From: Escherichia coli
Lineage (GTDB): Bacteria > Pseudomonadota > Gammaproteobacteria > Enterobacterales > Enterobacteriaceae
Strand: one strand, 5' to 3'
Assembly (NCBI RefSeq): GCF_003334305.1
Contig: NZ_QOWS01000004.1
DNA length: 64,000 nucleotides
Shown here: positions 1,174 through 26,352 of the stretch, piece by piece
Numbering within the stretch: position 1 is the first letter of the stretch
How the letters are laid out: each line of letters starts with the position of its first letter
Notes under the pieces: model-generated
What the model was told of the DNA's origin: nothing
Database searches by the model: none
What the model saw: only the letters and a program-made list of their open reading frames with translations
Program-made: the position numbers and the translations under genes

Positions 1174-3804
1174 TTATTGCAATTTCGCGCTGACCCAGCC
1201 TTTCACACTGGCTAACGCTGCAGGTAAGGCCGCAGCATCCGTACCACCGGCTTGCGCCATGTCAGGACGTCCACCACCCTTGCCGCCCACCTGCTGAGCG
1301 ACCATACCAATCAGTTCCCCTGCTTTCACACGATCTGTGACGTCCTTAGATACGCCTGCAATCAGAGAAACCTTACCTTCGGCTACCGTTGCCAGCACGA
1401 TAATTGTCGACCCCAGCTGATTTTTTAAATCGTCAACCATGGTACGCAACATTTTCGGCTCAACACCGCTAAGCTCGCTAACCAACAGCTTAACACCATT
1501 AACATCAATTGCCTTACTGGAAAGATTTGCGCTCTCCTGTGCGGCAGCTTGTTCTTTAAGCTGTTGTAGTTCTTTTTCTAACTGACGCGTACGTTCCAGT
1601 ACTGAGCGCACTTTATCCGCCAGATTATTGCTATCGCCTTTCAGCAGATGCGCGACTTCGCTTAAGCGATCGCTGTCTGCATGAACGGTGGTGATAGCGC
1701 CTTCTCCGGTTACCGCTTCGATACGACGAACGCCTGCAGCAGTACCCGATTCAGAGATGATGCGGAACAGACCAATATCACCAGTGCGGCTGGCGTGAGT
1801 ACCGCCACACAGCTCGGTGGAGAAATCGCCCATGCTCAGCACGCGTACACGCTCATCATACTTCTCGCCGAACAGCGCCATCGCACCTTTCGCTTTCGCC
1901 GCTTCGAGATCCATGATGTTGGTTTCGATCGGCAAATTGCGACGAATCTGTGCGTTCACCAGGTCTTCGACCGCACGAATCTCTTCCGGTTTCATCGCTT
2001 CGTTGTGTGAGAAGTCGAAGCGCAGCACCTTGTCGTTAACCAGTGAACCTTTCTGCGATACATGAGTCCCCAGAACCTGGCGCAGCGCAGCGTGCATCAG
2101 GTGCGTTGCGGAGTGATTCAGACGAATACGGGCGCGACGAGCCTCATCAACATCAGCCTGCACAGCGTCGCCCACTTTCAGAGAACCCGCAGCAAGTTTA
2201 CCGATGTGACCAATCGCCTGGCCGTATTTCTGCGTATCTTCCACCGCGAAGGAGAAGTTAGCGCCTTTCAGTTCGCCTTTATCACCAACCTGACCGCCGG
2301 ATTCCGCATAGAATGGTGTTTGATCCAGCACGACCACAGCTTCCTGGCCTGCATTGATGGCATCAACCGCTTTACCATCAACAAACAGCGCGGTCACTTT
2401 GCCGTTCAGTTCCAGATGGTCATAGCCTTTAAATTCAGATGCACTATCAACACGGATCATTGCGTTGTAATCGGCACCAAAGCCGCTGGCTTCGCGCGCG
2501 CGACGACGCTGCTCTTCCATTGCTGCTTCAAAACCAGCTTCGTCAACTTTGATGTTGCGCTCACGACAAACATCAGCCGTCAGGTCAACCGGGAAGCCAT
2601 AGGTGTCGTACAGACGGAAAGCCGTTTCACCATCCAGCGTATCACCAGAAAGTTTTGCCAGCTCTTCATCCAGCAACGCCAGACCGCGCTCCAGAGTACG
2701 GGCAAACTGCTCTTCTTCAGTCTTCAGCACCTGCTCAACCTGCGCCTGCTGGCGTTTCAGGTCTTCACCCGCAGAGCCCATAACGTCGATCAGCGGACCA
2801 ACCAGTTTGTAGAAGAAGGTTTCTTTCGCGCCGAGCATATTGCCGTGACGCACTGCGCGACGAATGATACGACGCAGTACATAACCACGGTTTTCATTGG
2901 ACGGCATTACGCCATCCGCGATCAGGAACGCACAAGAACGAATGTGGTCAGCGATTACGCGCAGCGATTTATTGCTCAGATCGGTCGCGCCAGTGACTTT
3001 CGCTACCGCCTGGATCAACGTGCGGAACAGGTCGATGTCATAGTTAGAGTTAACGTGTTGCAGCACCGCAGCAATACGCTCCAGACCCATACCGGTATCT
3101 ACAGACGGCTTCGGCAGCGGTTCCATCGTGCCATCTGCCTGGCGGTTGAACTGCATGAAGACGATGTTCCAGATCTCAATGTAGCGGTCGCCGTCTTCTT
3201 CCGGACTTCCCGGAGGGCCACCCCAAATGTGGTCGCCGTGATCGTAGAAGATTTCGGTGCACGGGCCGCACGGACCAGTGTCACCCATCTGCCAGAAGTT
3301 GTCAGATGCGTATGGCGCACCTTTGTTATCGCCGATGCGAATAATACGTTCGCGCGGGATCCCGACTTCTTTTTCCCAGATTTCGTAGGCTTCGTCGTCG
3401 CTTTCATAGACGGTAACCCACAGACGCTCTTTCGGCAGGGCAAACCATTTTTCGCTGGTCAGCAGTTCCCATGCAAACTGAATGGCATCGTGTTTGAAAT
3501 AGTCGCCGAAGCTGAAGTTGCCCAGCATTTCGAAGAAGGTATGGTGACGCGCGGTGTAACCGACGTTTTCCAGGTCGTTGTGTTTACCACCCGCACGCAC
3601 GCAGCGTTGGGAAGTGGTAGCGCGGGAATAATTACGCTTGTCGAGCCCAAGGAACACATCCTTGAACTGGTTCATCCCGGCGTTGGTAAACAACAAAGTT
3701 GGGTCGTTATGGGGTACCAGGGAGCTGCTGGCAACTACCTGATGTCCCTTACTATGGAAAAAGTCGAGAAACGCCTGACGGATCTCAGCGGTGCTCTTGC
3801 TCAT
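1174..3804 (-). CDS. alaS: Alanine--tRNA ligase
   Basis: ORF track 876 aa, starts [24 protein letters not shown]; class II aaRS; position downstream of recX. Confidence 0.97.
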
Positions 3805-20319: not shown

Positions 20320-21330
20320 TTATCGCGAAAGGGCAATGAGTGAGTCGCGGCGGATCAGTTTTCCGCTGAAGGTTTTCGGCGGTGAGAAATCCCCGCCATC
20401 GAGCATAAAAATCAGCCGTCCAATAATTTCCTGAATCATCTCTGTTACCGGAATTTTTACGCTGGAGAGCGCCGGAACGGTGTAGGGGGCAATTGCGATA
20501 TCATCGAATCCGATAACCGACACCTGCTCTGGCACCGCTACGCCGCGCTCGTGCAACGCTTTGATCGCACCTATCGCCATATCGTCGTTACTGGCAACTA
20601 ACGCGCTAAATTTAGCCCCACGTTCGAGCAACGTTTCTACCCCTTCGGCCCCGCTGGCGGGCGTCCATTTACCGTTAGCGATAAGTTTTTCATTGAGCGC
20701 AATACCATGCTGCGACAGCGCGTCTTTATACCCGGCAAGACGTTCAACGCTGGTGGGGGAATCCATCGAGCCGGTAAGGAAAGCAATCTCCTGATGTCCG
20801 GCGTTTATCAACTCTGCCACGGCATTAAAGCTGGTCTGTTTATGATCGCACCAGACGCTATGGCTGCTGTTTTTGCGCAGGCGGCGATTAAGCACCATTA
20901 TCGGCTGACTGTGCGCGTCAATGATGTCATCAATCTCATCCACGCTTAAAAAACGCGGGTAAATCATAATGGCGTCGCAGCGCAAATCCAGCAGATACTG
21001 AATCGCCTGGCGCTCTTCTTCGGCGCTGTGTTTACCATCTGCCAATAGCAACTGCCGCCCTTTCTCTTCCGCCATTCGCGCGGCATGAAACAGTAATTCA
21101 CTAAAATAAATGCCGTGATAAAGCGTGTTGGTCACTACCAGCCCCAGCGTCTGAGTACTCTTCGCCGACAGATTGCGGGCCAGCAAATTTGGGCGGTAAC
21201 CGCTCTCTTCTACCGCCTGAAACACGCGATCTTTAGTCTCCTGGCTGACGTAGCCATTACCTGAAAGCACGCGGGAAACGGTCGCTTTTGAAACCCCGGC
21301 GCGCTTCGCCACTTCCAGCATCGTCGTCAT
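20320..21330 (-). CDS. ascG: LacI-family repressor of the asc (arbutin/salicin/cellobiose) operon
   Basis: ORF track 20320..21396; start at MTTMLEVAKRAGVSKATVSRVLSG (HTH), 336 aa. Confidence 0.93.
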   Translation of the reverse strand: MTTMLEVAKRAGVSKATVSRVLSGNGYVSQETKDRVFQAVEESGYRPNLLARNLSAKSTQTLGLVVTNTLYHGIYFSELLFHAARMAEEKGRQLLLADGKHSAEEERQAIQYLLDLRCDAIMIYPRFLSVDEIDDIIDAHSQPIMVLNRRLRKNSSHSVWCDHKQTSFNAVAELINAGHQEIAFLTGSMDSPTSVERLAGYKDALSQHGIALNEKLIANGKWTPASGAEGVETLLERGAKFSALVASNDDMAIGAIKALHERGVAVPEQVSVIGFDDIAIAPYTVPALSSVKIPVTEMIQEIIGRLIFMLDGGDFSPPKTFSGKLIRRDSLIALSR

Positions 21331-21417
21331 CATTTTCATCCCTTTACACGCAATCAACGCAGTGTACTGCACCGTTTGCCGATTGTCCTTGCGCAATCGG
21401 CGGGAAAAATATTCAGG

Positions 21418-21429
21418 TGACCGGTTTCA
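21418..21429. promoter_or_regulatory. Candidate AscG operator 1 (tgaccggtttca)
   Basis: LacI-type palindrome centred on CCGG in the ascG/ascF divergent intergenic region. Confidence 0.55.
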
Positions 21430-21491
21430 CAAATATAAAAAATGAACAATTAACTCTCTTGCTTATTTAGTGACAACTATTCATGATTTTG

Positions 21492-21504
21492 TGAAACCGG
21501 TTTC
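21492..21504. promoter_or_regulatory. Candidate AscG operator 2 (tgaaaccggtttc)
   Basis: Near-perfect palindrome TGAAACC/GGTTTC about 75 bp from operator 1. Confidence 0.6.
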
Positions 21505-21589
21505 CTAATTCCGTTTCAGCATCGGCATTTTTCCGTTACGTCGACTGATAACAACTACATCTACCCTACTGATAACAGGATAAAATCCG

Positions 21590-24480
<2,891 letters not shown>

Positions 24481-24488
24481 GTAACCGT

Positions 24489-24568
24489 GCCGGATGCGGC
24501 GTGAACGCCTTATCCGGCCTACATAGTTCGTGCGACATGTAGGCCCGATAAGCGCAGCGCATCGGGCA
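24489..24568. repeat. Pair of inverted REP units (BIME) downstream of ascB
   Basis: gccggatgcggcgtgaacgccttatccggcctaca and tgtaggcccgataagcgcagcgcatcgggca. Confidence 0.85.
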
Positions 24569-24593
24569 ATCTGGGGTTTGGCATCAGTCAAAA

Positions 24594-25013
24594 TCAAAGA
24601 AACCATTCCGGCTTAACGCCAAATCGGGCTGAAAGTGCCTTAATGTGGGATATTGTCAGGGATCGTTGTCCAGACAAAATCTGACTGACCAGGGATTTAG
24701 AGCCGATTTCGTTCTTCAAATCCGCATAGGTCAGATTATGTTGATCAATCAACGTGCGAAGTAACGCCACGCCAACCGGCATTGCCGCAACGGCTTTGTC
24801 GAACTCTGCAAACTTTTCGTTGTTGTTTTCATACTCTGCAATGCGGCTCGCCAGAAAGTCGATAAGTGGATTGGTGTCATCTTCTTCAATCAAATATTCG
24901 ACCAGTTCCAGTGCTTCACGATAATCATCTTCTGAGTCACTGCCTCCCAGAAAGGGGACTGCATTGACCAGTTCTCTTGTTGCTTTAACAGCGCGTGCAG
25001 CATTAGCAGTCAT
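24594..25013 (-). CDS. HigA-family antitoxin-like HTH (Xre/Cro-type) protein, no adjacent toxin gene
   Basis: ORF track 24594..25079 (TTG start); ATG at 25011-25013 gives 140 aa MTANAARAVKATRELVNAVPFLGG...GSKSLVSQILSGQRSLTISHIKALSARFGVKPEWFL; by eye about half the residues match my recollection of E. coli HigA (YgjM). Confidence 0.7.
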   Translation of the reverse strand: MTANAARAVKATRELVNAVPFLGGSDSEDDYREALELVEYLIEEDDTNPLIDFLASRIAEYENNNEKFAEFDKAVAAMPVGVALLRTLIDQHNLTYADLKNEIGSKSLVSQILSGQRSLTISHIKALSARFGVKPEWFL

Positions 25014-25032
25014 TCTTTGTTCTCTCTGTAGT

Positions 25033-25055
25033 AACGTGACGTCTGTCTGCACGTA
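25033..25055. promoter_or_regulatory. Inverted repeat ACGTG-N11-CACGT upstream of the HigA-like gene (candidate autoregulatory operator)
   Basis: aacgtgacgtctgtctgcacgtaa between the ORF B stop and the HigA-like ATG. Confidence 0.35.
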
Positions 25056-25083
25056 ATCCCCCTCATAGCCACTCTGCAAAAAG

Positions 25084-25857
25084 TCAGTTCTGGTTCACCC
25101 CATAAAGCACATCCCCCTTTATCAAGCAACGCTGCGTCTGCGCCAGATCTTCCGTTTGCGGGTCGCGCCCGGCGATGGGTTTGAGGACGAGTTTACGGTT
25201 GGGGGTATAAGTAAAACGCGTGAGCGCGGGATAGCTTAACTTGCCAAACCAGCCGTGAACACGCTGCCATTTGGCGTCTTTTACCTGATACAGACTGGTT
25301 ATCCAGTAACCAGAATTAAACTGCATATCCAGCAATTGCGTGTGACCATTGCCTTGCAAATCCAGCAAATCATCTACGCCAGTTTTGCTTGCGGTGTAGA
25401 ATCCCCTGGGTTCAAAGACACAGGGACGGCCTTCGCGCGTGAACGTCATAAGAATTAAATGTGCATAAGGAGCCAGACCATTACCGGTACTTGGTAACCA
25501 GATAACCAGATCCTGAATGCCGTTACGATCAAGATCGGCGCGATAGAGTTGCCCTTTGCCCGCTATGTTTGCCAGCATACCCACAGGCACAGACCAGGAT
25601 TTACCGGCGCGATCTTTACCGTTCAATTGCCATTCACTATCATCATTTGGCATCTTTTCAAGCGTCACGCCAGCAACGCCCACTTTTCTAAAATGCCAGG
25701 TTTGCTCGGCATCATAAGGCATGGTCAGGAGAGGTTTCAGCGCCCGCTTTTGCGCGTATTCGCTGTCACTCATTGGCAGATATTCGGTAAAGCTGGTGGC
25801 CTGTGCAGGCAGCACTAAGCTCAATAAAAAAGCGCACATCCCTGTTCTGATATTCAT
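25084..25857 (-). CDS. Sec-exported protein of unknown function with two DxDxNG-like (FG-GAP/calcium-loop-like) motifs
   Basis: ORF track 257 aa; signal peptide MNIRTGMCAFLLSLVLPAQA|TS; motifs ADLDRNGIQDLVIW and DDLLDLQGNGHTQLL; ATG 24 nt downstream of hycI stop, same strand. Confidence 0.65.
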   Translation of the reverse strand: MNIRTGMCAFLLSLVLPAQATSFTEYLPMSDSEYAQKRALKPLLTMPYDAEQTWHFRKVGVAGVTLEKMPNDDSEWQLNGKDRAGKSWSVPVGMLANIAGKGQLYRADLDRNGIQDLVIWLPSTGNGLAPYAHLILMTFTREGRPCVFEPRGFYTASKTGVDDLLDLQGNGHTQLLDMQFNSGYWITSLYQVKDAKWQRVHGWFGKLSYPALTRFTYTPNRKLVLKPIAGRDPQTEDLAQTQRCLIKGDVLYGVNQN

Positions 25858-25881
25858 TTCGCTGAATTCCCTGATGGAGAA

Positions 25882-26352
25882 TTATTCTTCTTCCACCGCT
25901 AACTGCGCGAAGCCGCCATTCCCTTCCCAGCCTTCCAGTCGTTGATAAACGGTTTCAACCGCATCTTTAATCGGCTGGGTCATCGGGTAGTAAAAGCCGA
26001 CGATATCCGGCTGGATGCCGAGGAAAATCACTTCGCCAATATCTTCTTTCAACTGGTCGATAAGGTAGTTCAACGGCATGTTATGGGTAGTCATCATAAA
26101 CATCTCGGCGATATCATCCGGGTCGATGATGCGGATCTCGCCGGGGTTTAGCCCCATATCAGTGGCGTCGACAATCAGCAGTCGCGTAGGGCGCAGTTCA
26201 CGGATGGCGACGATGTCGTTTTCCGGTGCACTACCGCCGTCAATCACCACCCAGTTACCTTTCGGCGCGGCGGCGCACTTTTCCGCCAGCAGCGGGCCTG
26301 CGCCATCATCGCCCATCATGCTATTGCCAACACAGAGTAAAACGTCAGTCAC
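25882..26352 (-). CDS. hycI: Hydrogenase 3 large-subunit maturation endopeptidase HycI
   Basis: ORF track 156 aa [25 protein letters not shown]. Confidence 0.95.
   Translation of the reverse strand: MTDVLLCVGNSMMGDDGAGPLLAEKCAAAPKGNWVVIDGGSAPENDIVAIRELRPTRLLIVDATDMGLNPGEIRIIDPDDIAEMFMMTTHNMPLNYLIDQLKEDIGEVIFLGIQPDIVGFYYPMTQPIKDAVETVYQRLEGWEGNGGFAQLAVEEE

Follow-up and report, generated by a model that had tools for sequence, protein, structure and literature searches.

In the Escherichia coli strain studied here, the DNA between the divergently transcribed genes ascG and ascF is, we are confident, the standard and already characterised control region of ascG and ascFB, in which CRP would activate, AscG would repress at two sites and the operon would be silent. 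The two palindromes and the CRP box found at ascFB have been described before, and there is nothing new in the control region. The original prediction had proposed that this stretch is the regulatory region of an asc operon and contains a pair of AscG-type operators. The identity of the region is borne out by the comparison with K-12, to which it is identical at 255 of its 259 positions, and of the two operators the proximal one is supported. The distal one requires a different description, namely as a CRP box on which an AscG half-site has been overlaid. Throughout this text, the window denotes the whole 64-kb stretch of DNA that was analysed, and positions are given in its numbering.

The asc locus and its comparison with K-12

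The window is a segment of the E. coli chromosome. On one side of the intergenic region the gene order is hypF-hydN-ascG and on the other ascF-ascB, followed by the hyc genes. The synteny from hypF to ascB is common to the window and to K-12 MG1655 (asc genes b2714-b2716). The three asc genes are as follows.

20320-21330, minus strand: ascG, a LacI/GalR-family repressor of 336 amino acids, 331/336 identical to K-12, no gaps
21590-23047, plus strand: ascF, a PTS beta-glucoside IIBC component of 485 amino acids, 482/485 identical to K-12, no gaps
23056-24480, plus strand: ascB, a 6-phospho-beta-glucosidase of 474 amino acids, 472/474 identical to K-12, no gaps

The identities thus range from 98.5 to 99.6% in gap-free alignments, and all three genes are full-length, as had been claimed. 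A hidden frameshift in ascF or ascB had been named as a result that would speak against the prediction; neither gene has one, since both products align with their K-12 counterparts without a gap. AscF scores 1026 bits against the NCBIfam equivalog NF007311 (cutoff 722) and AscB 1089 bits against NF007356 (cutoff 623). For AscG, NCBIfam contains no specific model and its LacI-family models gave only sub-threshold matches, the best being GalS and GalR, so that the assignment of this protein rests on its 98.5% identity to K-12 AscG. The two proteins do not differ anywhere in residues 1-194, a stretch that takes in the DNA-binding domain. The five substitutions (I195V, A206S, M233T, M256I and P334L) all lie outside that domain, in the effector domain and the C-terminal tail. 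The segment 13-VSKATVSRVL-22, which we take to be the recognition helix from the usual layout of LacI-family proteins, is invariant in all of the 40 related loci described below.

The asc operon had been called apparently intact, which implies a contrast with K-12. This contrast does not hold, for the K-12 genes are equally intact and the control regions are nearly identical, and intact asc genes therefore do not set this strain apart from K-12. The asc operon of K-12 is silent through repression by AscG, for which no inducer is known (PMC3505978). Because the K-12 genes are intact and yet silent under AscG, the intactness of the asc genes says nothing about their expression.

The intergenic regions of the window and of K-12 are equal in length and differ by four SNPs, at 21393, 21452, 21505 and 21537. 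A comparison with K-12 had been suggested as a way of finding activating insertions or mutations; it revealed no insertion or large change, only these four substitutions. One of them, at 21505, falls inside a box, where it changes the last base of the proximal 14-mer (C here, T in K-12). The distal box of K-12 is identical to that in the window, and the proximal boxes are identical at 13 of 14 positions.

The intergenic region was found in 4699 of 5426 complete E. coli genomes. An exact 30-mer with the C of the window at 21505 is present in 2163 complete genomes and the corresponding 30-mer with the T of K-12 in 2346, which puts the C allele in about 46% of the E. coli genomes with the region. 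In other genera, too, C (…TTTCC) is the state seen most often. A 30-mer covering the distal site is identical in 4556 of the 4699 genomes with the region. The window therefore carries an ordinary, common E. coli allele of the control region. The ascG-ascF intergenic region is without a match in the remaining 727 of the 5426 genomes, in line with reports of a lower prevalence of ascG among extra-intestinal pathogenic strains (PMC6550539).

The proximal operator and the distal composite site

The two boxes in the intergenic region are listed here; no strand is assigned to either.

21416-21431: distal composite site GGTGACCGGTTTCACA, a CRP box with its centre at 21423.5, overlapping an AscG-type 14-mer at 21416-21429
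21492-21505: proximal AscG operator TGAAACCGGTTTCC, a 13/14 match to the palindrome, covering the predicted transcription start near 21494

The motifs on which the original prediction was based, tgaccggtttca at 21418-21429 and tgaaaccggtttc at 21492-21504, are exactly where they had been placed. As an operator-like palindrome, the proximal motif stands. The distal 12-mer does not qualify as such, because its left arm is degenerate.

The proximal sequence TGAAACCGGTTTCC differs at one position from the perfect 14-bp palindrome TGAAACCGGTTTCA, and it is the only match with one or no mismatch in the 64-kb window; in 100 shuffles there was none. This palindrome is reportedly the consensus obtained by Ishida, Kori and Ishihama in 2009 using genomic SELEX. 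TGAAACCGGTTTCT, a sequence from the K-12 promoter PascF, is listed as an AscG binding sequence in Table S3 of PMC8667592, and TGAAACCGGTTTCC agrees with it at 13 of 14 positions, the last base alone differing. When TGAAACCGGTTTCT was placed at +1 of a synthetic promoter, strong repression by AscG was observed (PMC8667592). The cognate AscG, with a DNA-binding domain identical to that of K-12, is encoded beside the proximal site. Judged by these sequence matches, the proximal box is an AscG operator.

The motif is not peculiar to AscG. PtxS of Pseudomonas, a LacI-family protein that responds to 2-ketogluconate, represses from operators near -10/+1 that contain the identical 14-bp palindrome TGAAACCGGTTTCA (PMC5902321). 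Because PtxS uses the same palindrome, TGAAACCGGTTTCA may be regarded as an operator typical of the family. The likeness between the two systems is limited to the operator sequence, for PtxS is another regulator with another effector and other targets, and in contrast to AscG it has no overlapping CRP site.

The distal site is first of all a CRP box, since GGTGACCGGTTTCACA matches the CRP consensus TGTGAN6TCACA at 9 of 10 positions. Sites with a single mismatch to this consensus are not rare, however, as three were found in the whole window and 1.8 were expected. The AscG-type 14-mer that overlaps the box, GGTGACCGGTTTCA (21416-21429), agrees with the AscG palindrome at 11 of 14 positions. Its right half, CGGTTTCA, is perfect and its three mismatches leave the left half degenerate. 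The number of matches to the palindrome with three or fewer mismatches in the window is 6, compared with an expectation of 3.1, and 8 of 100 shuffles reach this number; taken alone, the distal AscG match is therefore within chance. The other matches with three mismatches, at 2616, 7220, 30829 and 42896, were rejected as candidates, their number being that expected by chance. Calculated from 3.1 per 64 kb, about 0.013 such matches are expected in any one stretch of 259 bp. The distal and proximal sites have in common an exact repeat of 9 nt, ACCGGTTTC, at a spacing of 76 bp. Two AscG sites at ascFB are on record in the literature, and the overlay of an AscG half-site on the CRP box is found in E. 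coli and Kluyvera only. In an annotation, the distal "operator" is best entered as a CRP/AscG composite.

Conservation across genera

One genome per species was scanned with AscG, and 40 loci were found in which an ascF orthologue is divergently transcribed. The loci belong to Escherichia, Citrobacter, Enterobacter, Lelliottia, Kosakonia, Kluyvera, Phytobacter, Pseudocitrobacter, Pluralibacter, Cedecea, Aeromonas, Yersinia, Pectobacterium and Rahnella. The intergenic regions were anchored on the proximal box and 41 sequences were compared. The core of this box, AACCGGTT, is kept in 41 of the 41 sequences, which represent several families, and across genera the box usually takes the form TGGAACCGGTTTCC or TGGAACCGGTTACC.

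In 36 sequences the proximal box is preceded, at a centre-to-centre distance of 73-75 bp, by a CRP-type box with the pattern GTGAtc-N4-TCAC. In three more, from three genera, the distance is 65 bp, one helical turn less. A shift by one turn agrees with CRP action from a position of about -71.5 or -61.5. The GTGA and TCAC half-sites are kept in nearly all 41 sequences, while the 6 bp at their centre vary. It is in this centre that the AscG half-site is found, and here the lineages differ. In the 34 loci from other genera, the CRP half-sites alone are conserved at the distal position, and these sequences have 6-9 mismatches to the AscG palindrome, compared with 3 in E. coli and Kluyvera. The half-site CGGTTTCA occupies the centre of the CRP box only in E. 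coli (CCGGTT) and Kluyvera (TCGGTT), the AscG proteins of which are 72-76% identical. The Citrobacter version of the distal box is given for comparison.

Citrobacter version of the distal box: GGTGATCGTAGTCACA

Inspection of the aligned regions indicates that the general layout is one AscG operator plus a CRP box, the second AscG site being confined to a few lineages.

The predicted promoter and the ascF leader

The following elements lie around the proximal box.

21459-21464, plus strand: predicted -35 of the ascFB promoter, TTGCTT, the TTG keeping a constant spacing to the proximal box in almost every one of the 41 sequences
21482-21487, plus strand: predicted -10, CATGAT, 17 nt after the -35 and ending 4 nt before the proximal box
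21513-21518, plus strand: GTTTCA motif that resembles an AscG half-site, located early in the leader and 8 nt downstream of the proximal box

CATGAT or GATGAT is present at the equivalent offset in 26 of the 41 sequences. The start of ascFB transcription is predicted at about 21494, which would place it inside the proximal box. A simple scan of 21300-21640 for sigma-70 consensus promoters and for terminators found nothing. The lack of a sigma-70 match is as expected, because the promoter is taken to be activator-dependent.

TTTCA occurs 7 to 9 nt after the proximal box in 21 of 41 sequences, which represent several genera, and anywhere within 22 nt of it in 25; in shuffled windows of 22 nt its frequency is 2.6%. 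In 15 of 41 sequences, but not in E. coli, the promoter spacer has a GAAAC 19 nt upstream of the box. The GTTTCA and GAAAC motifs could be extra half-sites for AscG, or else an element of the leader.

Several further features of the leader were recorded. An exact direct repeat of 10 nt, ACTGATAACA, is present at 21544-21553 and at 21568-21577, the second copy adjoining the ribosome-binding site. The ascG-ascF intergenic region of E. coli is about 45 bp longer than that of Enterobacter (259 versus 214 bp), and the extra length falls downstream of the proximal box, ahead of the ascF start codon. In the predicted fold of 21494-21610, a stem is formed by 21520-21534 and the region of the ribosome-binding site and start codon, and the fold as a whole is no stabler than those of shuffled sequences (z = -0.12). 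Nothing in Rfam matched the region at E <= 1. On the basis of these two results, we rejected the idea of an RNA switch or antiterminator in the ascF leader. In E. coli strain 04A19CPO007 (NZ_CM151383.1), an IS1 element occupies positions 2714-3535 of the compared locus (L082) and interrupts the ascF leader at the equivalent of about 21543. This insertion is downstream of both boxes and of the predicted promoter, and it could either uncouple ascFB from AscG control or silence it.

A model for the control of ascFB

These elements may be combined in the following model. The sequence matches, the identity to K-12, the conservation across genera and the allele frequencies on which it builds are results of the present analysis; the position of the promoter and of the start, the binding of the proteins and the competition with CRP we infer or take from the literature. 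The ascFB promoter would be weak and dependent on CRP. The cAMP-CRP complex would bind to the distal box, the centre of which (21423.5) would fall at about -71 relative to the predicted start, where class I sites are located. AscG, encoded divergently, would bind to 21492-21505, beginning 4 nt after the predicted -10 and extending over the predicted start, and would block RNA polymerase there. In E. coli, AscG would also bind to CGGTTTCA inside the CRP box and compete with CRP, thus acting by anti-activation. With no inducer known for AscG, the operon would be silent in spite of its intact genes, as it is in K-12.

Much of this model has precedents. Ishida, Kori and Ishihama (J Bacteriol, 2009) are said to have described two AscG sites at ascFB and a repression that is exerted by interference with cAMP-CRP at a CRP box overlapping AscG site 1; AscG reportedly also interferes with the binding of RNA polymerase. 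GalR/GalS and CytR, like AscG in this model, are LacI-family repressors that act through two sites at a CRP-activated promoter. GalR forms DNA loops together with HU; CytR is positioned between two CRP dimers through protein contacts. By comparison, the AscG half-site lies within the CRP box itself, which points to direct competition, and there is no support for looping here. In a passage that cites the 2009 study, PMC3505978 says of ascFB that it "has two binding sites" for AscG. According to the same paper no inducer of AscG is known, and insertion of IS186 into ascG leads to transcription of ascFB (PMC3505978). AscG represses prpBCDE as well as ascFB (PMC6550539).

Alternative explanations

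A priori, the proximal palindrome might be the sole functional AscG operator and the distal box a pure CRP site, its likeness to an AscG site being incidental and due to the resemblance of TTTCA to the TCACA half-site. The 34 of 41 distal positions that keep GTGA and TCAC with 6-9 mismatches to the AscG palindrome agree with this, as does the distal match with three mismatches, which is within chance for the window. If the likeness were incidental, however, the same octamer, CGGTTTCA, would have appeared in the CRP box of two lineages, and this is unlikely without selection, because E. coli and Kluyvera are not sisters and their AscG proteins are only 72-76% identical. The exact 9-nt repeat common to both boxes also argues against a single operator, as does the report of two AscG sites at ascFB (the passage in PMC3505978 that cites Ishida 2009). 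We consider a sole proximal operator improbable. If both sites bind AscG, they might act by DNA looping, as part of a repressosome like that of GalR or LacI that encloses the promoter. The two sites do bracket the -35/-10 region, 76 bp apart from centre to centre, and LacI/GalR-family repressors commonly have paired operators (PMC3505978). On the other hand, a LacI-AscG chimera (LLhA/Q55A) depended less than 2-fold on operator spacing, and its authors noted the contrast with the presence of two sites. AscG, with 336 amino acids, is shorter than LacI, with 360 (PMC3505978). A spacing of 76 bp corresponds to about 7.2 helical turns at 10.5 bp per turn, which leaves the sites out of phase, and most genera have a single AscG box. 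The shorter AscG presumably also lacks the C-terminal extension by which LacI tetramerises. Looping between the two AscG sites is therefore unlikely, and direct competition with CRP at the distal box, together with occlusion of the start at the proximal one, remains the reading that we prefer.

Two other possibilities concern the strain and the reality of the sites. The operon may not be cryptic in this strain, if the variant AscG or the C allele of the operator permits induction or leaky expression. The five AscG substitutions, all outside the DNA-binding domain, and the one operator base that differs from K-12 are compatible with this, and cellobiose-6P has been proposed as the effector of the AscG group by comparative genomics (PMC4052901). 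But ascG is intact, with neither an IS element nor a frameshift, no inducer is known for E. coli AscG (PMC3505978), and the C allele, shared by about 46% of those E. coli genomes that have the region and common in other genera, is a normal operator variant. We therefore give a non-cryptic operon only a slim chance. Whether asc is expressed in this strain is not readable from the sequence, as the original prediction recognised; the intact ascG and the normal operators favour silence. Finally, both palindromes might be functionless chance matches, given how often short palindromes occur and that chance suffices to explain the distal match taken by itself. That the proximal box has no second copy in the window and no match in any of 100 shuffles, that it is conserved in 41 of 41 sequences and that its K-12 counterpart has been used experimentally as an AscG site (PMC8667592) leaves this explanation with next to no probability, and it was rejected as already refuted by conservation and published binding.

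The interval between ascB and hycI

Downstream of the asc genes, the window departs from K-12. The interval between ascB and hycI (24588-25861, about 1.27 kb) replaces 32 bp of K-12 and contains two ORFs on the minus strand, at 24594-25079 and 25084-25857, neither of which has an NCBIfam hit. The first is the counterpart of a helix-turn-helix gene that in strain E2865 adjoins an annotated HigB-family toxin gene; the second is hypothetical. Relative to E2865, a piece of about 412 bp, with most of the higB toxin gene in it, is missing from the window, and the antitoxin-like gene at 24594-25079 is consequently orphaned. The arrangement found in the window is shared by 1331 of 5426 E. coli genomes. 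The stretch that was queried, 24470-25900, also takes in DNA that is repeated at dispersed sites, the median being 37 places per genome.

Implications for asc crypticity

As a whole, these results matter little for the understanding of asc, since the control region is a published one and the allele is common in E. coli. The restriction of the second AscG site to a few lineages, on a CRP box that is widely conserved, is only a small addition. A more far-reaching interpretation, to which we give no more than a small chance, is that the AscG half-site in the CRP box is a lineage-restricted gain, made in Escherichia and apparently independently in Kluyvera, which adds anti-activation to the repression exerted at the start, so that a "double lock" keeps asc tightly silent. 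If this were true, the double lock would set the crypticity of asc in E. coli apart from the situation in relatives that possess a single operator.
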